From: Escherichia phage APECc02
Length of the DNA: 64,000 nt
Strand: one strand, 5' to 3'
Sequence record: NC_041869.1
Positions 10,946 to 63,986 of the stretch are shown piece by piece. Below the pieces are notes generated by a model that worked only from the letters and a program-made list of their open reading frames with translations, had not been told where the DNA came from and did not search any database. Every line of letters begins with the position of its first letter. The stretch's first letter is position 1. Both the position numbers and the translations under genes were made by a program.

Positions 10946-13369
10946 ATGAGTATGTGGTCTTTCGATTTTGAGTCATCCGGTTTGCTGGAAGACCCAGATC
11001 TTTATTATCACTGCGGTCTGTTTAAAGAGCTGAATAAGAACCGTTTTATGCTGTTCCTTCCTCTAAATGACCGCACACACTACTCCGAGGAGGATATAGA
11101 AAAGGCTAAGAACTTCATTCTGGCAAAGAAAACTCTTTATAAAGATTTTGAAGTTCGCATAGCAGATTTTTCGGAGTTGGAAGGTTGGCTTACAGGCAAT
11201 TCTGACTGGTCACCAACAGCTTTGAACTGCCATAACTGCTACAGTTATGACTTTATGCTAATGGAAAGATTATCCGGTATTCATTTTGATATGTTCCGTG
11301 ATCCTAAATGCATGGGGACTATCAACGACCACCAGGTTAATCTGTTTGATACGTTGGCTATGAGCCGAATATTGTGGCCTGATCGCCCTTTACCAAAAGG
11401 TTGTCCGGACGCTGTATTCAACCCGGTTACTAAGAAAATGCAACCTGTTGGTCCTCACGGCCTTATGGCATGGGGCTACGCCCTTGGTAACCAGAAAGTT
11501 CAAATTGATGACTGGCGCGATCTTCCGCTGTGGAAATATGTGGATCGTGTGTTCGAGGACGTTATCATCCAGGAGTTGCTCTGGAAAGAGCTGGTAGCGG
11601 AATCAAAAGGTGTATTCTACGGCAAATCTGACATGCAGAACTTTATGTACGATCCAGCCAAAGAGAAGCCGAAAGGGTTCAAGAAAATCACCTGGAAGAA
11701 CGCATTACGCCGAGGCATGCTGCAGCACTTCCTGATGGAGCTGCAGGCCCGTCAGGGTGTGTATTTCGACATAGATGGGGCTATTGCTTTACGTGACCGT
11801 TGCGATGCGTGGATGAAAGAGATCGCTGATCGTGTTGAACCTCAACTTCCTTTAAAAGAGTTGTCAATGTCTCAGCGGCCCAAGTTCCCTGAAAAGCCGT
11901 TTAACCAAGACGGGACAATCTCCAATAATGGTTGGAAATGGTTAAAAGATAAGCTTGGCTATCCTGTAGACATGAGCGCTTTAGAATTCAAAGCCCCGCC
12001 TAAGCGAGCATTTACCTCCACAGGAGATGTCAGCAAGATGGGGATAAAATGGTGCGAAGAGATGGGCTGCAAAGACCCCGACAAGATGGCTGATTTCTTG
12101 AGAGGTTATATTAAGGGCACCTCCACACCACAACCTTTACCTAAAGAGCTGATGGATCAGGCAATAAGTGATCTGCAGCAGAAGCGAATGCCTGACTGCA
12201 AGATACCTATGAAAATCAGCAATCAGGACGACATTAAGCGATACCTGATCAGTGCTGGTTGGCTTCCGACAATGTGGAGAACTAAGGATGTAACTAAGGA
12301 CAGCAAGAAGAAAGCTCTACCTGATGCAGATGTTGATGCACGAGTATATGCATACATGGACGAGCTTTTAGAGTCAGAGTATTGTGACCTAATTATCAAC
12401 TTCTGGAACAAAACTGATGCTAAGTTTCAGACAACAGTGCACAAGTTCCGAAGCTTTCCTAACTCCGAAAGGATTAAAAAGGAAGTGTTCGGGAAAATAC
12501 GCAGAAAAGCCAGGGCACTTATTACTTCTCCGCAACTGAAAGATACGTTTGGACACCTATGTCCGAATCTTGAAAAATTGAACGGAGAGATGGCTAAAGA
12601 TATCGTCTTGTGGTTATCATTGCGAAACCGCAGATCGGTCCTTGATCCAATCAAGGAGGATAAGGTTGATACTGGTCTTCTTAATCACCCACGTTTGAAG
12701 ATTGACCATAAGCTTCCTGCTAAAAGCTCTGGATTAACAAACACTTCCCGACAGAAACACAGTATTTGTGCAAACATGCCTAAACCATCTCCTAAAGTGG
12801 TTATGGGTAAAGAGATGCGTAGCTTGTGGGGTGTTCCTCCTGGATACTTTGAGATCGGTATTGACGGGTCCAACTTGGAGCAGCTTATCGGGGCTTGGGG
12901 TGCCTTTGAGTTCGACAACGGCTTGTACTATGATGTTGTAAGTAACGGGGACGCACACCAAAACAATGCTGAGGCATATACAAAAGTAGCAGGCAGAGAG
13001 GTGTCTCGTAACGACGGTAAACCTATCACGTATGGGGTTATGTACGGGGCACAAAAAGATAAAGTTGCAGATATGCTGGATATCTCCCCAGAGTTGGGGC
13101 AAAGGGTGATCGATGCACTTTGGGATGCCAACCCCGGTCTTAAGGGGCGCAAAGAGGATCTGGAGAAATTCTGGGAAGCAACAGGTAAGAAGTTTATCTA
13201 CTCTTTTGATGGTCATGCTATCTGGACCCGATCTAAACACTCTTTACTTAATGCATACCAACAAAATGGTGGTGCATCGCTGTGTGACTTAGTTGGGATA
13301 CTCATGCACCACCAAATGGTGAAGCGTGGGTGGTACGATGAAGGTGTCCGTCGTATTATCTATTACCAT
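10946..13369 (+). CDS. DNA polymerase family A, exon 1 (3'-5' exonuclease and polymerase motifs A and B)
   Basis: Exo I FDFESSG at N-terminus, motif A GIDGSNLEQ, motif B KPITYGVMYGAQ; RBS AAGGAG; track ORF runs 6 nt further to an in-frame TAA that I place inside the intron. Confidence 0.8.
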
Positions 13370-14211
13370 AAATAACATTGTGGCTTCGTGCAGTGATGCA
13401 CGTCGAAAACCTCTTTAATTGACGGGAAGGCTAAGTTGACTTTTACACCTGAACATGGTAAAAGCTCAATATGCTAATCCGCAGCGAAGACTAAAGGGGT
13501 GTAGTTAAAATGGCTAGATCAGCTGATTATCACGGGTATACCGTGTTTGATGATGGAACAATACCTTTATCGAAACGTGATCATACAACAATGTTTTGTT
13601 TTGATAATGGTAGAGGTTACCTTTGCGTAACCATGCTCATCGAGGGGAAGCAGTGCACAAAAGGTGTCCACCACTTGGTTGCTGAATGCTTTGTACCGAA
13701 CCCTGATCCTGAAAAGCTCACATGGGTGAACCATAAGGATGGAAATAAGTACAACAATGCACACTGGAACCTGGAATGGACTACCCCTGGTGGAAATATC
13801 AAACACGCCTACGATAATGAACTCAGAGTAAGGCCAGTCGGTGAGTATAATGCCAACGCTGTGCTGACCGAGGATGAGGTAACGGAGATTTGCGAACTGT
13901 TGCAGAGTGGTCTACGACAATGCGAGATTAGGGATCTTGGGTATCCTTATGAGACGGTCAGAGCCATAAAGCAAAGAAGACAGTGGAAACATATCTCTAA
14001 AAACTACACCTGGTAGTAACGTTCAGAGACTATCGAAAGCATAGCTCCAACATAGTTTGGTGTGAAGAAGCGAGTAGAGTAGGCCAGCAAGTGCGGTCGA
14101 AATGAGAGGTGCCTTGGTAACAAGGTAATGAGATAGTCCGATCCATACAGGAAACCGTATGGCTGTGCACGTAATGGTGCGGGGTAGCTTAACGACCTAC
14201 CTGAACTATTG
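13370..14211 (+). mobile_element. group I self-splicing intron with embedded HNH homing endonuclease ORF
   Basis: P1 pairing CCAU(13366-13369)/GUGG(13380-13383) with U.G at 5' splice site; conserved P-like AATTGACGGGAAGG (13417-13430), Q AATCCGCAGC (13476-13485), R GTTCAGAGACTA (14021-14032), S AGATAGTCCG (14131-14140); terminal G at 14211. Confidence 0.7.
13510..14016 (+). CDS. HNH homing endonuclease (intron-encoded)
   Basis: motifs VHHLVAECF and VNHKDGNKYNNAHWNLEW; lies between intron Q and R elements. Confidence 0.75.
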   Translation: MARSADYHGYTVFDDGTIPLSKRDHTTMFCFDNGRGYLCVTMLIEGKQCTKGVHHLVAECFVPNPDPEKLTWVNHKDGNKYNNAHWNLEWTTPGGNIKHAYDNELRVRPVGEYNANAVLTEDEVTEICELLQSGLRQCEIRDLGYPYETVRAIKQRRQWKHISKNYTW

Positions 14212-14565
14212 GATGAGTACCAACTTCAGGTCCCTGACACGCCTAAGTATAAGACTGTGTACACCTTCGACACAATTGAAGAGCTGGAAGCATTTAAGGC
14301 AGAGCAGGAAGCCAAACTTCATGTGTTCGACGGTCATAAGTACAAAAAGGCACGCAAGGATGAAGACGGAAACGAAGTGGTTGACAGAGACGGAAACACG
14401 GTGTACGATCCTATCCTGAACGATGACGGAAAGCTTGAACTTATCTGGAGCCCTGTGGGTGAAATGGTGGTGCATTGCTTCTGGCAAGCTTCTAAAATGA
14501 TGGGCGTCCCGTTCCAGATCACAGGTGAATACCTGTGTGGTCGTAATTGGGGTGATTGTCACTAA
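14212..14565 (+). CDS. DNA polymerase family A, exon 2 (motif C and C-terminus)
   Basis: predicted splice junction gives ...IIYYH|DEYQLQV, restoring the HDE motif C; C-terminus GRNWGDCH matches the PolA terminal NW...H; track ORF begins at in-frame TTG 14209. Confidence 0.7.
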   Translation, partial: DEYQLQVPDTPKYKTVYTFDTIEELEAFKAEQEAKLHVFDGHKYKKARKDEDGNEVVDRDGNTVYDPILNDDGKLELIWSPVGEMVVHCFWQASKMMGVPFQITGEYLCGRNWGDCH

Positions 14566-35993: not shown

Positions 35994-36209
35994 TCAGTCC
36001 AGCGGTTCATCCTCTACTTCACTGAAATCAATGTTCATGGTCTCTTCCCAACCATCGATCTCAGCACAAGAGTGGAGTTCTTTAGGGTTTACTCCCAAAG
36101 CCTCAGCAACAGAGTCTATATTTAACACCTCTGGCAGGTATGATTCATCGAATTCAAGGTAAATCAGGCCACGAGTGTTGTCAGCTCCACCAAATATCTC
36201 TATCTTCAT
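35994..36209 (-). CDS. hypothetical small acidic protein
   Basis: 71-aa ORF, last gene of minus-strand block. Confidence 0.5.
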   Translation of the reverse strand: MKIEIFGGADNTRGLIYLEFDESYLPEVLNIDSVAEALGVNPKELHSCAEIDGWEETMNIDFSEVEDEPLD

Positions 36210-60063: not shown

Positions 60064-60657
60064 TCAAATACCTTCTAAAAATTTTCCTATTTTATACCAG
60101 CTATTAGCGGTATAGTCAACACTGACCTTTAACTCCTCGAATTGCTCATAAGGCGTATCTTTTAGGATTTTAATAACTTCAGGTCGTGAAGCGAATTGGT
60201 TCAGGTATTCATGCCTGTCATCAATTATAACATCTACAGCCACATTTCCTTTGAAATGTGTGGCGTAGAATCCGTGGCCCTGGGTGTGATCGTCCAGATC
60301 CATAAAATCACTGGTCCAACGCTTTAAGAACCTTGATTTAGATGCAAGGTGACCTTTCTTGCATACCGAGATAAATGCAAGCTTGTGACCACGAGCCACC
60401 AAATCTTTCATAACCTCAATAGCCCCCTCTTCAGGCTTAAGGAAGTCGTAGAGGAACGGATCACTCCAGAAATCAAAAGGTCCTATGATGTTTTCTTTGG
60501 GACGATCAGGCCAATACTTTGACAGATCGTAATACATTAGCCCATTAGAAGGTTTAGCTACTGTCTTACTGGCTGGACCATACAAACGCTCCAACCACTC
60601 CCACCATGCTGTTCCTGAATCTACCAGTGTCAGATCTACATCAATTCCGATTAACAT
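60064..60657 (-). CDS. HAD-family 5'-(deoxy)nucleotidase
   Basis: HAD motif I DVDLT at residues 6-10; nucleotide-metabolism neighbourhood. Confidence 0.6.
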   Translation of the reverse strand: MLIGIDVDLTLVDSGTAWWEWLERLYGPASKTVAKPSNGLMYYDLSKYWPDRPKENIIGPFDFWSDPFLYDFLKPEEGAIEVMKDLVARGHKLAFISVCKKGHLASKSRFLKRWTSDFMDLDDHTQGHGFYATHFKGNVAVDVIIDDRHEYLNQFASRPEVIKILKDTPYEQFEELKVSVDYTANSWYKIGKFLEGI

Positions 60658-61265
60658 TCTTCTTGGGCCTCTTTAGCATCAATATACTTGCACACAATCT
60701 CCGATGCACACTCCCAAGGTGCACCTTCAGGGTTTACAACATCAAACTCAACCCCTTTTATTCCGTTCTTTTCCAGACTTAGATAGGTTCTGGAATCATT
60801 TCCCCAGTCATATCCTACACGGTGAATACGGAACAACAACAGATCTCCACCTGTGCTGTATGCGTACTCGCTAAGGCATGCCAGCTCCTCTTTGAATCCC
60901 CCATCGGAGTAAACAATAACCCCTTTACCTTCAGGGAAATCTTTCTTCAAAGATGCGACTGCGGCTTTACCGAAAGCATCTTCACCAAAGATAGGTTTAA
61001 TCAGATTTTCACTACAATGGATCATCCATTCTCGCGGAGAAACATGCTTGCCGTCTATCATTAAGAAAGGGCAAGGCTCTTCTTTGTAGTGACGGTCATA
61101 AAGTGCATTCCAGAGTTGAGGAGTTACACCAGCTGCCTTAATTGCCACACTGAAGAGCATTTCCTTAACCTCGCGGTGGTGTGAGTTAGGAATAGCTTCC
61201 AACAAGAGATCTGCAATGTGATCCTTACCACTGCTGGGTGGGGCGTTAAGAACAATAATATCCAT
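60651..61265 (-). CDS. deoxynucleoside monophosphate kinase
   Basis: P-loop NAPPSSGKD at N-terminus as in T4 gp1-type dNMP kinases. Confidence 0.65.
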   Translation of the reverse strand: MDIIVLNAPPSSGKDHIADLLLEAIPNSHHREVKEMLFSVAIKAAGVTPQLWNALYDRHYKEEPCPFLMIDGKHVSPREWMIHCSENLIKPIFGEDAFGKAAVASLKKDFPEGKGVIVYSDGGFKEELACLSEYAYSTGGDLLLFRIHRVGYDWGNDSRTYLSLEKNGIKGVEFDVVNPEGAPWECASEIVCKYIDAKEAQEEC

Positions 61266-61483: not shown

Positions 61484-61942
61484 TTAGAAGTTTGTTTTTA
61501 CACGTCCCTTCTCATCAACCTCGTTGTTAGCTAAAAGCGTTACAAAGTCTGTGAAACGAACATGAAGAACCCTTTTCTTATCAAGGTATCCTAAAGCCAC
61601 CCCTGAGAAATTTAGCATCAAAGGGGCTAAAGAAGCTCTGGCACTGAAATGCTGTTGTTCTACCCTTCCAACACCCTTAGTGTAGGATGGGTTAAGATTG
61701 TAAGTTCTGAATCCCAGTTTTGTTGGAGCTTTAGAATTAAAAACGACTTTATAGCGTTTCTTACTCAACTTATGCTCCAGGATAAGCATTCCCTTATCAC
61801 CTTTGATAAGTTGAAAATCTGTAAAGTGCTCTTTTAAGACGAAAGGTAGTGCCAGTCCCATCGCCTGTCCTCTTTGTACCGCTGTCTCACCAAAAGCTTT
61901 TGCATCAGTAAGTTCTTTGGTCAAGTCTATGCTTTTGATCAT
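61484..61942 (-). CDS. hypothetical protein
   Basis: 152-aa ORF; start may be downstream of track start (overlaps MTase end by 38 nt). Confidence 0.45.
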   Translation of the reverse strand: MIKSIDLTKELTDAKAFGETAVQRGQAMGLALPFVLKEHFTDFQLIKGDKGMLILEHKLSKKRYKVVFNSKAPTKLGFRTYNLNPSYTKGVGRVEQQHFSARASLAPLMLNFSGVALGYLDKKRVLHVRFTDFVTLLANNEVDEKGRVKTNF

Positions 61943-62753
61943 ACCTGGTCTCCAAAATGTATTGTAGTTCTTTCTTACCTATACTCTTCATTCCAGCAGT
62001 CTTACCTGCTTCTTCTTGAAAAGAAGAATAGCATTCAGCAAACACTCTGTCAACACCGTTAACTAAAGATTTTATGAAATATGTTGATTCTTCAGATTTT
62101 GGGTCATCATCCCCCAATACTTTTCCAGCATTATACCCAACACGTCTTACACAGAAGTCGTAGTCATCTGGTGTGCTAAAAGAAAATAACTTATTCTCTC
62201 CAATCTCTACAGGATCCCTATTGCACGCCTTTTTCTCCCAAATTTGGAAAACACATGGCACGTCATAAGGTTTGCCATTAAGTAAAAACGAATTCTTAGG
62301 GCACCTTTCGCTGTAGACAAGGTGCATCGACATGTCCAGTTTGTTTGCAAAAAATATTTTTTCAAATGTCCGTGGCAAGATGAAGGCTATAGCCCCTCCA
62401 AGCTCTAGCAATGATGCACAATGGTTAAAGAATTTGCAAGCTAAGGATGAATTCTTGCCAAATGGTGGGTTACCTATGAAGACATCTGCCTTGGGATGCA
62501 CCTCCAAGAAGTTTGCCTGAATGCACGGTGTTGGTCCTTCAAATTCAGGATCTGGTACTAAATCGTACGACAGTATCTCTGAAAATAGTTTTGAAAAAGA
62601 ACCCCTTCCAGCAGAAGGCTCAACGTATGCACAATTCCCATACTTATCTTTTACTTTACCAACAAGATATTCTGCATACTCAGGGTTTGTGTAGTATTTG
62701 TCGTTGGACTCTTTCTTGCTCAAAGTGCCTCCAAAAGGAAAAGGGAGGCGCAA
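61905..62753 (-). CDS. DNA N6-adenine methyltransferase, gamma-class
   Basis: motif I VEPSAGRGSF precedes motif IV GNPPFG. Confidence 0.7.
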   Translation of the reverse strand: MRLPFPFGGTLSKKESNDKYYTNPEYAEYLVGKVKDKYGNCAYVEPSAGRGSFSKLFSEILSYDLVPDPEFEGPTPCIQANFLEVHPKADVFIGNPPFGKNSSLACKFFNHCASLLELGGAIAFILPRTFEKIFFANKLDMSMHLVYSERCPKNSFLLNGKPYDVPCVFQIWEKKACNRDPVEIGENKLFSFSTPDDYDFCVRRVGYNAGKVLGDDDPKSEESTYFIKSLVNGVDRVFAECYSSFQEEAGKTAGMKSIGKKELQYILETRYDQKHRLDQRTY

Positions 62754-62768
62754 GCCTCCCTATAATTG

Positions 62769-63752
62769 TTAGATTATCTGAATCAGGGTATTTTTCATTT
62801 CTTCTCTGGTTCGGATGTTGTTACGGTCACGAACAACAGATCCACAACCTTCGCAGCGGTATGTTTTAAATGCACTCAGTTGAGTATACGCCAAAGCTTC
62901 TTCCTCGTGAAGGTGTTCTCCACCACAGCGTGGGCAACGAACTTTTGGCTCCTCATCCTGGTAGTACAATGACATGTTGGGGTGCTGCTTAGCAAACGGG
63001 CGAGCCAGCAAATACAGGCCTTCCAGAGATAGGATATCGCCAACATTGTACTCCCGCATCTGTTTAAACGCCTCAAGATCACCGTGAACACACTTGATCC
63101 ACATTTCAAATGTGTGGTCAATCAGTTTCTGTCGGGCAAGTTGGAAGTATTTGCATGCATACTCCAAAGTGTTTGCATTCAAACGGAATGCCTTCTTGAT
63201 CATTTTAAGGGTGTCAACCTCTTTGTAGGGGCTTGTTGGAGGCAATCCGTGAAATGCAAATCGTTGGTTGGCCCACCCACAGTCAAAACCTGAATTGTGG
63301 GCTACTGCGATATCACATTTATCCAGATAATACCACAAATCCTGAATCAATTCGAGATCATTGTGAATATCCTCATCCCACATTTTGTAATCAGGAAGAG
63401 CGCAGTCAACCACACTAGGACTGTCTAACCACTTACCTGCGAAAGTTAGCATGTAGGGCATAATTTCAATACCGCAGGTTTGAATGTTGGTCTTATAGTG
63501 CCCAAAGAACCAGCCGTTTGTTGGAGATGTCTCTGTATCATACACCCAAACTTTAGCACCTTTGTGCTCTTCAAGGAAACGCTCCGTTGCTTCTCCTACA
63601 ATCTCTGACATATTCTCTTGTGCACGTTTAAGCTGTAGTCGGATCCAGCTCTCACGTGACTCACGGCCTAAAAATTCACGAGCAATTTGTCTATTAGTGT
63701 ATCCCTGTTGCTTTAGTGTTAAAATTTGCTCAAGAGTTAACTTTGTCATCAT
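62769..63752 (-). CDS. DnaQ-like (DEDD) 3'-5' exonuclease with N-terminal HTH and C-terminal zinc ribbon
   Basis: HTH-like YTNRQIAREF; Exo I VYDTETS, Exo II VAHNSGFDCGW, Exo III-like HGDLEAF; CPRCGG...CEGCG. Confidence 0.6.
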   Translation of the reverse strand: MMTKLTLEQILTLKQQGYTNRQIAREFLGRESRESWIRLQLKRAQENMSEIVGEATERFLEEHKGAKVWVYDTETSPTNGWFFGHYKTNIQTCGIEIMPYMLTFAGKWLDSPSVVDCALPDYKMWDEDIHNDLELIQDLWYYLDKCDIAVAHNSGFDCGWANQRFAFHGLPPTSPYKEVDTLKMIKKAFRLNANTLEYACKYFQLARQKLIDHTFEMWIKCVHGDLEAFKQMREYNVGDILSLEGLYLLARPFAKQHPNMSLYYQDEEPKVRCPRCGGEHLHEEEALAYTQLSAFKTYRCEGCGSVVRDRNNIRTREEMKNTLIQII

Positions 63753-63764
63753 CGTTAAGATTCC

Positions 63765-63986
63765 TTAGTAAAACTGAAGAATGTCTTTTAAAGCGAAGTC
63801 ACGATATTCGCCCTTGTCTACATCGAAGGCACGCATCAACCACTGCTCTTCTTTATGATACTCTGTAGAGCCAAACCATAAATTAGGCTCAGTAACGCAG
63901 CGATCTGCAACAACACCTTTCCAGTTACGGTATTTCATCCTGATCAGGACTGAGTCGCAAGGATTGAATACCTTTTTCATCCCCAT
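63765..63986 (-). CDS. hypothetical protein
   Basis: 73-aa ORF near window edge. Confidence 0.45.
   Translation of the reverse strand: MGMKKVFNPCDSVLIRMKYRNWKGVVADRCVTEPNLWFGSTEYHKEEQWLMRAFDVDKGEYRDFALKDILQFY

Follow-up and report, generated by a model that had tools for sequence, protein, structure and literature searches.

Bacillus subtilis MrfB (YprB) is, to our knowledge, the only characterized protein of Pfam family PF13482, and it works together with the helicase MrfA. Its published description presents it as a DEDDh 3'-5' DNA exonuclease of mitomycin C repair (PMC11194089). According to Majorek et al. (2014), an uncharacterized phage cluster of PF13482 adjoins the cluster of PolB exonucleases (PMC3985635). 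Literature on rV5, phiKMV gp24, ICP1 gp189, DEDDy phage exonucleases, and phage PF13482 proteins yielded annotation-level mentions, and no assay was found there. A second point of comparison is DnaQ, whose C-terminal tail contacts the alpha subunit and which also carries a clamp-binding motif. Here, we compare with these systems a phage protein in which a DEDD exonuclease is joined to a helix-turn-helix (HTH) and a zinc ribbon.

A complete gene of a widespread phage family

The window (the whole 64,000-nucleotide stretch of DNA that was analyzed) contains the gene as a complete open reading frame (ORF) that starts with ATG and has exactly the limits given in a preliminary description made from the sequence alone (Table 1). 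An AAGGA ribosome-binding site lies 8 to 9 nt 5' of the ATG, just beyond the stop codon that ends the 73-aa ORF upstream. The gene shares 99.7% nucleotide identity with its counterparts in the Escherichia phages slur16, rV5_ev147, nimi, JohannBauhin, and WalterGehring (Vequintavirus), and with a cutoff of 90% identity it is present in 119 phage records. Because of this near-identity with Vequintavirus genes, the window is assigned, on sequence grounds, to the genome of an rV5-like myovirus. The gene is already in the databases, where it is labeled "hypothetical protein," "DnaQ-like 3'-5' exonuclease" (as in slur16 and JohannBauhin), or "DNA polymerase exonuclease subunit," and the fusion is not new.

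Table 1. Positions of the gene, its parts, and the adjoining small ORF in the window
Feature	Residues or motif	Position	Strand	Remarks
Small upstream ORF between endonuclease VII and exonuclease genes	73 aa	63765..63986	minus	phrog_3715; throughout rV5-like group
Complete ORF, HTH - DEDDy exonuclease - zinc ribbon	327 aa plus stop	62769..63752	minus	PHROG 403
N-terminal HTH	5-45 (LTLEQILTLKQQGYTNRQIAREFLGRESRESWIRLQLKRAQ)	63618..63740	minus	Model helices and profile matches
Linker, helix 3 continued	46-62	63567..63617	minus	pLDDT 82-85; poorly conserved in homologs
RNase H-like DEDDy 3'-5' exonuclease core	66-255	62988..63557	minus	
ExoI motif	D72-T-E74	63531..63539	minus	D and E in 157/159, remaining 2 are gaps
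ExoII motif	N153-S-G-F-D157	63282..63296	minus	D157 in 159/159, N153 in 154/159
ExoIII motif (DEDDy type)	Y235-N-V-G-D239	63036..63050	minus	Y and D each in 158/159
C-terminal four-Cys zinc ribbon, then basic R-x-R-x-N stretch	270-313	62814..62945	minus	
First Cys pair	C273-P-R-C276	62925..62936	minus	158/159 and 156/159
Second Cys pair	C300-E-G-C303	62844..62855	minus	157/159 and 156/159

Residues 2 to 326 of the window protein align with profile positions 2 to 320 of 321 in PHROG 403, a family named "DNA polymerase exonuclease subunit," at an E value of 6e-111. This end-to-end match shows that the three-part architecture is the normal form of a phage family that was already defined. When 1.84 billion cluster representatives (50% identity) were searched with a profile, 4726 matched at E ≤ 1e-3, of which 1800 reached E ≤ 1e-30. 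Among 50,697 deposited phage genomes, tblastn located the family in 1526; ICP1, phiKMV-like Pseudomonas phages, and phages of Acinetobacter, Xanthomonas, and Ralstonia are among these, as are several hundred mycobacteriophages. The LKD16 and ICP1 homologs align across residues 11 to 326. A word-indexed homolog search with the single window protein retrieved 9 relatives only. A distant subfamily lacking the second Cys pair dominated the word-indexed profile search, and its alignment was not used for our conclusions.

Scanned against Pfam, 138 of 150 homologs match PF13482 (at E < 1e-3), 58 match PF10108, defined as "exonuclease related to the PolB exonuclease domain," and 22 match PF03104. LKD16 gp24 scores 38.2 bits against PF13482 (RNase_H_2; gathering threshold, 22); the window protein itself has no match to this family at E ≤ 1 and is linked to it only through its homologs, by transitive homology. 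The family profile also matches the MrfB structure 8un9, at an E value of 0.009. RNase_T aligns with residues 135 to 209 at 21.7 bits, which is below its gathering score of 24.

Exonuclease core and zinc ribbon

The structural model used here was built by AlphaFold from 150 diverse homologs (pLDDT 95.0, pTM 0.83); a model from an 8-sequence alignment reached a pLDDT of 50.6 and was not used. Residues 68 to 253 form an alpha/beta core with an RNase H-like fold. The top match in a viral fold library is a Pseudomonas phage LKA1 protein annotated as "YprB ribonuclease H-like domain" (E value, 6e-29; TM, 0.75), which agrees with the Pfam families of the homologs (PF13482, PF10108, and PF03104) and with the grouping of Majorek et al. 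(2014).

Conservation was counted in an alignment of the window protein with 158 homologs from 50%-identity clusters (159 sequences). The four acidic residues of the DEDD superfamily (D72, E74, D157, and D239) are present, each of them in at least 157 of the 159, and the three exonuclease motifs read from the sequence in the preliminary description are thus all confirmed. A Tyr stands four residues ahead of the last Asp (Y235-NVG-D239) in 158 sequences, as in the DEDDy subclass. The DEDDh form of ExoIII (H-x4-D) is absent from the window protein, since H213, which lies roughly at the position of the DnaQ histidine, has no Asp after it. Membership in the DnaQ epsilon family was rejected because of this Tyr in place of His in ExoIII and because the NCBIfam dnaQ/epsilon models score only 16 to 27 bits against cutoffs of 72 to 223 (NF004316, 26.8 versus 196; TIGR01406, 22.9 versus 222.7; TIGR00573, 15.8 versus 71.5). 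By fold and active-site residues, the protein falls in the DEDD (DnaQ-like) 3'-5' exonuclease superfamily; as a refinement of the earlier label, its type is DEDDy and close to the PolB exonucleases, not the DEDDh type of DnaQ.

Three strands of the C-terminal ribbon are predicted in the model, at residues 281 to 289, 294 to 300, and 306 to 312, with a pLDDT of about 98. About ten zinc-ribbon families of Pfam (at least 8) match residues 265 to 320 weakly (E values of 2e-3 to 5e-3), and the family consensus at the ribbon end reads YRCxxCGxxxRxR. Two CxxC knuckles, a predicted three-stranded sheet, and Cys residues kept in 156 to 158 of the 159 sequences bear out the ribbon with two CxxC pairs that had been proposed. 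The DEDD site and the four-Cys ribbon are nearly invariant, which rules out a chance occurrence and indicates strong constraint. The conserved core of the family is the DEDD exonuclease plus the zinc ribbon; unlike the N-terminal module, the ribbon is taken to be an inherent component of the enzyme.

A variable N-terminal module

At the N terminus, the model has helices at residues 7 to 15, 20 to 28, and 31 to 62, the third of which extends as a long linker. When the window protein alone was compared with Pfam, residues 7 to 27 gave weak matches to HTH_38 (E = 0.033) and HTH_7 (E = 0.093). A profile of 34 homologous N termini matched solved HTH domains, namely, 2lvs (5e-6), the PAI subdomain of the Sleeping Beauty transposase (8e-6), and the LuxR-type HTH of NarL (2e-5). 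Because of these profile matches, the N terminus is judged from its sequence to be a genuine HTH of the transposase/resolvase and LuxR/GerE type. With three predicted helices in the model and profile homology to solved HTHs, the HTH of the preliminary description stands, but its attribution to sigma region 4 does not. The Pfam scan of the window protein at E ≤ 1 returned no Sigma70_r4 family, and Sigma70_r4 is absent from the 25 listed Pfam families of the 150 homologs. Membership in sigma-70 region 4 was rejected, the nearest matches being transposase/resolvase and LuxR/GerE HTHs. LuxR/GerE-type HTHs fold like sigma region 4, and it is only in this loose fold sense, by way of the LuxR/GerE likeness, that the label "sigma-region-4-like" is acceptable.

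Fewer than 20 residues precede ExoI in 22 of the 159 proteins (about 14%), and most have 50 to 90; the N-terminus-poor homologs retain an intact active site and ribbon. When scanned individually, the N termini of homologs match HTH_23, HTH_38, HTH_SB, HTH_7, HTH_29, or HTH_3, and others match NUMOD1, Myb, or InsA- or IS1595-type zinc ribbons. Along the leaf order of a neighbor-joining tree of the core, the N-terminal class switches 48 times, compared with 84 ± 5 times when the labels are shuffled; N-terminal class is thus clustered on the core tree, yet it has changed many times. The clade of the window protein has the N-terminal pattern "G-x-S/T-x-R-x-I-A ... S-T-V/I," and the rV5-like phages and ICP1 carry a three-residue insertion ("LGRESRES") in the HTH turn. 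Because 22 proteins have nearly no N-terminal extension and other clades differ in module, we regard the HTH as an accessory module, in place of which other clades carry unrelated small DNA-binding modules. A module that varies or is missing fits general tethering to DNA at least as well as it fits sequence targeting.

Gene neighborhood

The block that contains the exonuclease gene is on the minus strand and is made up of genes for DNA and nucleotide metabolism. The gene order in JohannBauhin is 5'-exonuclease, two hypothetical genes, endonuclease VII, the 73-aa ORF, and the exonuclease gene, past which follow genes for an N6-adenine methyltransferase-like protein, a P-loop NTPase, an NT5C-like nucleotidase, ThyA, and class I and III ribonucleotide reductases (RNR). 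The protein annotated as a P-loop NTPase in JohannBauhin is a dNMP kinase according to the PHROG match of the window ORF (phrog_139). Among the rV5-like loci in IMG/VR, 16 keep the JohannBauhin nuclease order, and a seventeenth has the genes in a rearranged order; the 73-aa ORF takes the same place in these loci as in JohannBauhin. In the rV5-like lineage, the exonuclease is a member of a conserved trio with the FEN-like 5'-exonuclease and endonuclease VII. A distant rV5-like contig has a separate Rv2179c-like (PF16473) gene beside endonuclease VII.

Pseudomonas phage LKD16 gp22-gp23-gp24 follow the same nuclease order. So do gp21, gp22, gp23, and gp24 of Burkholderia phage JG068 (PMC3765740), where a 60-aa ORF takes the phrog_3715 position. 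Three distant, podovirus-like loci have the 5'-exonuclease and endonuclease VII genes directly upstream of the family member. Other contexts differ: ICP1 gp189 is followed by ThyA and NrdA, the family member of mycobacteriophage Bipolar comes after the lysis cassette, and those of environmental loci adjoin PolA, portal, large terminase, lysis, primase/helicase, or homing endonuclease genes. The association with the nuclease module is thus not family-wide, and the context is mixed outside the rV5-like and phiKMV-like groups.

Proposed function and alternatives

Our analysis establishes the fold, the conservation of the active site and of the Cys residues, the HTH homology, and the synteny; from these we infer the catalytic activity, what the enzyme acts on, and the parts played by the ribbon and the HTH. 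The reading that we prefer, with roughly even confidence, is that the protein is a stand-alone, metal-dependent DEDDy 3'-to-5' DNA exonuclease belonging to the replication and recombination nuclease set, and not a polymerase subunit. By analogy with the DEDDy class, D72, E74, D157, and D239 would coordinate a pair of divalent metal ions and Y235 would position the attacking water, and the 3' end would lose its nucleotides singly. The zinc ribbon and the conserved basic stretch most likely hold the nucleic acid substrate or a partner protein, while the N-terminal HTH, on its long helix, most likely tethers the enzyme to duplex DNA. The exonuclease may act with the neighboring FEN-like 5'-exonuclease and endonuclease VII on nicked, gapped, and branched DNA, on flaps, and on junctions, during replication, recombination, and the processing or resolution of concatemers.

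The nearby genes for dNMP kinase, the NT5C-like nucleotidase, ThyA, and RNR fit nucleotide salvage equally well. Because of these neighbors, we treat as a serious, though unlikely, alternative that the enzyme degrades host or competitor DNA from its 3' ends to dNMPs, for recycling by the nearby dNMP kinase and further enzymes, and so feeds the phage nucleotide pool, as a functional counterpart of T4 DexA. The dNMP kinase (phrog_139) and nucleotidase (Pfam) genes lie no more than 3 kb downstream, ahead of ThyA and RNR, and the placement of ICP1 gp189 before ThyA and NrdA is similar. However, temperate phages and small genomes without salvage genes commonly carry the family as well, and the T4 DexA/Rv2179c-like family (PF16473), membership in which was rejected, is absent from the Pfam matches of the window protein at E ≤ 1. 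The separate Rv2179c-like gene of the distant rV5-like contig suggests that the role may already be filled. Mycobacteriophage Girr gp37 (273 aa, a "DnaQ-like exonuclease") was moderately toxic when overexpressed in M. smegmatis (PMC11075535), and its size and phage cluster make it a probable relative. This toxicity would favor DNA breakdown for salvage, but it fits DNA processing as well, and toxicity on overexpression is non-specific. The toxic "DnaQ-like" proteins of cluster K mycobacteriophages (Amelie gp49, 183 aa) probably belong to a different, shorter family and were set aside.

We consider it quite unlikely that the protein works in trans as a proofreading or accessory subunit, either of the family A polymerase of the phage or, where a phage polymerase is absent, of the host replicase. 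The names in PHROG 403 and GenBank point that way; the core is similar to the proofreading domains of polymerases and also matches the DNA polymerase profile phrog_17 in its exonuclease region (E value, 1e-9). A related PolA is common to rV5, ICP1, and the phiKMV-like phages (PMC3606486), all of which also have the exonuclease family. The catalytic type, DEDDy and not DEDDh, and the low dnaQ/epsilon scores argue against such a subunit, as does the position of the window PolA gene, about 50 kb away in the opposite strand block. No clear ExoIII motif (Y-x3-D) was found in the window PolA, and its own proofreading might therefore be weakened, but it retains ExoI (FDFES) and an ExoII-like HNCYSYD and aligns weakly with the exonuclease region of T7 gp5. 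A sequence search of the PDB with its N-terminal 260 aa returned no match, nor did these residues match the exonuclease family profile in hhalign; the exonuclease domain of the window PolA is supported by motif inspection and the weak T7 gp5 alignment only. Two further cases weigh against a subunit: in one environmental locus, the PolA that lies two genes downstream of the family member has all three motifs complete (DxE, NxxFD, and YxxxD), and mycobacteriophage Bipolar carries a family member, but no DNA polymerase is annotated in any part of its genome. The view in the preliminary description that this is not a simple proofreading subunit is supported by these points against a subunit. Because the family is DEDDy and PolB-exo-like and occurs both in a phage without an annotated polymerase and beside a PolA with its own editing domain, the routine polymerase-subunit label is probably wrong.

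The preliminary description had favored a sequence-targeted or regulated nuclease, for which we see only a slim chance. The HTH would then read a specific site, such as an origin, a genome end, a promoter, or foreign DNA, and place or control the exonuclease there, possibly as an autoregulator. By its profile matches, the N terminus is a bona fide HTH of the transposase/resolvase/LuxR type, other clades swap in sequence-reading modules (NUMOD1, an InsA-type zinc finger, Myb, and HTH_3), and the type of module switches many times along the core tree. However, none of our tests supported the proposal: the HTH is accessory, and the homologs that do without an N-terminal module keep their active site and ribbon. 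No target site was found, a single small HTH is usually of low specificity, and an exonuclease requires an end rather than a site. A broader form of the idea, similarly improbable in our estimate, is a modular, site-tethered exonuclease in which a constant PolB-type nuclease and ribbon are steered by an exchangeable, sequence-reading N-terminal module. The kinds of module involved (HTH, NUMOD1, InsA-type zinc finger, and Myb) are those of homing endonucleases and transposases, and if this reading is true, each phage lineage would direct 3' resection at its own origin or genome ends, at host DNA, or at a competing phage. The variety of gene contexts, often at boundaries between modules, would be in keeping with an accessory gene that is semi-mobile.

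An exonuclease for RNA or oligonucleotides, acting in RNA processing (as had also been suggested) or in the removal of short oligonucleotides or signaling nucleotides against host defense, is hardly probable at all, given that every one of the top structural matches is an editing domain of a DNA polymerase, that the gene context is one of DNA metabolism, and that no link was seen between the exonuclease gene and a defense or counter-defense locus.

Returning to the stand-alone DNA exonuclease that we prefer, the family is among the commonest nuclease families in tailed phages, with members in ICP1, phiKMV-like therapeutic phages, rV5-like coliphages, and mycobacteriophages. The outcome is a modest correction of annotation that leaves current understanding unchanged and would not surprise a specialist. 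The interchangeable N-terminal DNA-binding modules are the sole mildly intriguing aspect of an otherwise common, annotated family, and a core with a ribbon and an exchangeable DNA-binding head offers a clear entry point for biochemistry.

Comparison with known systems

E. coli DnaQ is a DEDDh enzyme with an alpha-binding tail, whereas the C terminus of the window protein is a zinc ribbon, and no equivalent of that tail or of the clamp-binding motif was seen in it. T4 DexA is, like the window protein, a stand-alone DEDD 3'-5' exonuclease of a phage, encoded among genes for DNA and nucleotide metabolism, and may be a functional analog, although DexA and PF16473 have no sequence match to the window protein. 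MrfB is described as DEDDh, whereas the window protein is DEDDy, combines its core with an HTH and a zinc ribbon, and has no helicase partner close by. The core of the window protein resembles the editing domains of family B polymerases (archaeal PolB, Pol epsilon, E. coli Pol II, and RB69 gp43), at an identity of only 12 to 17%; the window protein differs from them in being a free-standing protein of 327 aa without a polymerase domain and in having the HTH and the ribbon. The closest likeness is to the members of PHROG 403 itself, including JohannBauhin bas53_0194, slur16, LKD16 gp24, and ICP1 gp189, which have the same full-length architecture. Between that family and the window protein there is no substantive difference, except that the family name implies a polymerase subunit, whereas the evidence presented here does not.

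A probable mobile intron in the polymerase gene

In the window, the PolA gene for the family A DNA polymerase is split by an 842-nt insertion that is missing from the close relative JohannBauhin (Bas53). The insertion site lies exactly between "...RRIIYYH" and "DEYQ...", that is, within the H-D-E of PolA motif C, and the inserted segment contains an ORF for an HNH endonuclease. The whole length of RF00028, the group I intron model of Rfam, aligns to 13360..14161 of the insertion at 41.1 bits, which falls under its gathering score of 50; in a search space of 1.1 kb, the E-value is 8e-9. The insertion probably represents a mobile group I intron, encoding a homing endonuclease and polymorphic among Vequintavirus phages.

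Features of the window and of related loci
Feature	Coordinates	Strand	Basis or match
PolA gene, interrupted	10946..14565	+	window
Insertion inside PolA gene	13360..14211	+	comparison with JohannBauhin
HNH endonuclease ORF within the insertion	13510..14016		phrog_59, E 8e-38
PolA exon 2	14212..14565		
NT5C-type 5'-deoxynucleotidase-like gene	60064..60657	-	Pfam PF06941, 27.1 bits vs 24.8
dNMP kinase-like gene	60651..61265	-	phrog_139, E 4e-44
282-aa gene, directly downstream of exonuclease	61905..62753	-	phrog_5172
73-aa ORF, function not assigned	63765..63986	-	phrog_3715; JohannBauhin L001 8767..8988
Rv2179c-like (PF16473) DEDD exonuclease gene	L006 4724..5347		Logan contig SRR23012395_17730, distant rV5-like

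Strand layout and the genes downstream of the exonuclease

GC skew, tabulated over the whole window, is positive from position 1 to about 36 kb and negative from there to 64 kb. The switch near 36000 coincides with the change from plus-strand to minus-strand genes, where two blocks of transcription converge. At the corresponding junction, JohannBauhin has about 2.5 kb without an annotated coding sequence (locus L002, 30001-32522).

The counterpart of the 282-aa gene is annotated in JohannBauhin as a putative N6-adenine methyltransferase. An NPPF motif occurs at residue 95 of the window product, which also matches DNA methyltransferase PHROGs weakly; its comparison with Pfam gave no family at E 1e-3. 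The gene overlaps the next ORF (61484..61942) by 38 nt. Farther downstream, the dNMP kinase-like and nucleotidase-like genes overlap by 7 nt (60064..61265, minus strand); by sequence, this adjoining pair would encode a putative kinase and a putative nucleotidase with the same substrates.

Relatives of the exonuclease and its upstream neighbor

The exonuclease gene recurs at about 98 to 99% nucleotide identity in 20 GenBank "Campylobacter phage" records with Campylobacter jejuni as the stated host, among them MG065635, MG065654, MG065666, MG065676, and MG065684. Because these records carry an E. coli rV5-like gene at such identity and their genomes are of rV5-like size, it is suggested that the deposit contains mislabelled or contaminating coliphage sequences.

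The distant rV5-like locus L006 has the PF16473 gene immediately after that for endonuclease VII and separately carries a PHROG 403-family exonuclease, so that some rV5-like phages would have two different stand-alone 3'-5' exonucleases within a single module. An abundant environmental subfamily (alignment A3, proteins P0159-P0271) shares about 24% identity with the window protein and keeps the DEDDy residues. Only the first of its four zinc-ribbon cysteines is invariant (consensus "CPVSGS...YCEDS"), and the ribbon of this branch may have lost metal binding.

In rV5-like phages, the slot between endonuclease VII and the exonuclease is always filled by the conserved 73-aa ORF, whose phrog_3715 match is confined to positions 121-189 of the 251 in the profile. 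In JohannBauhin, this ORF and the 3' end of the gene for endonuclease VII share 62 nt. Burkholderia phage JG068 has a 60-aa ORF in this slot.
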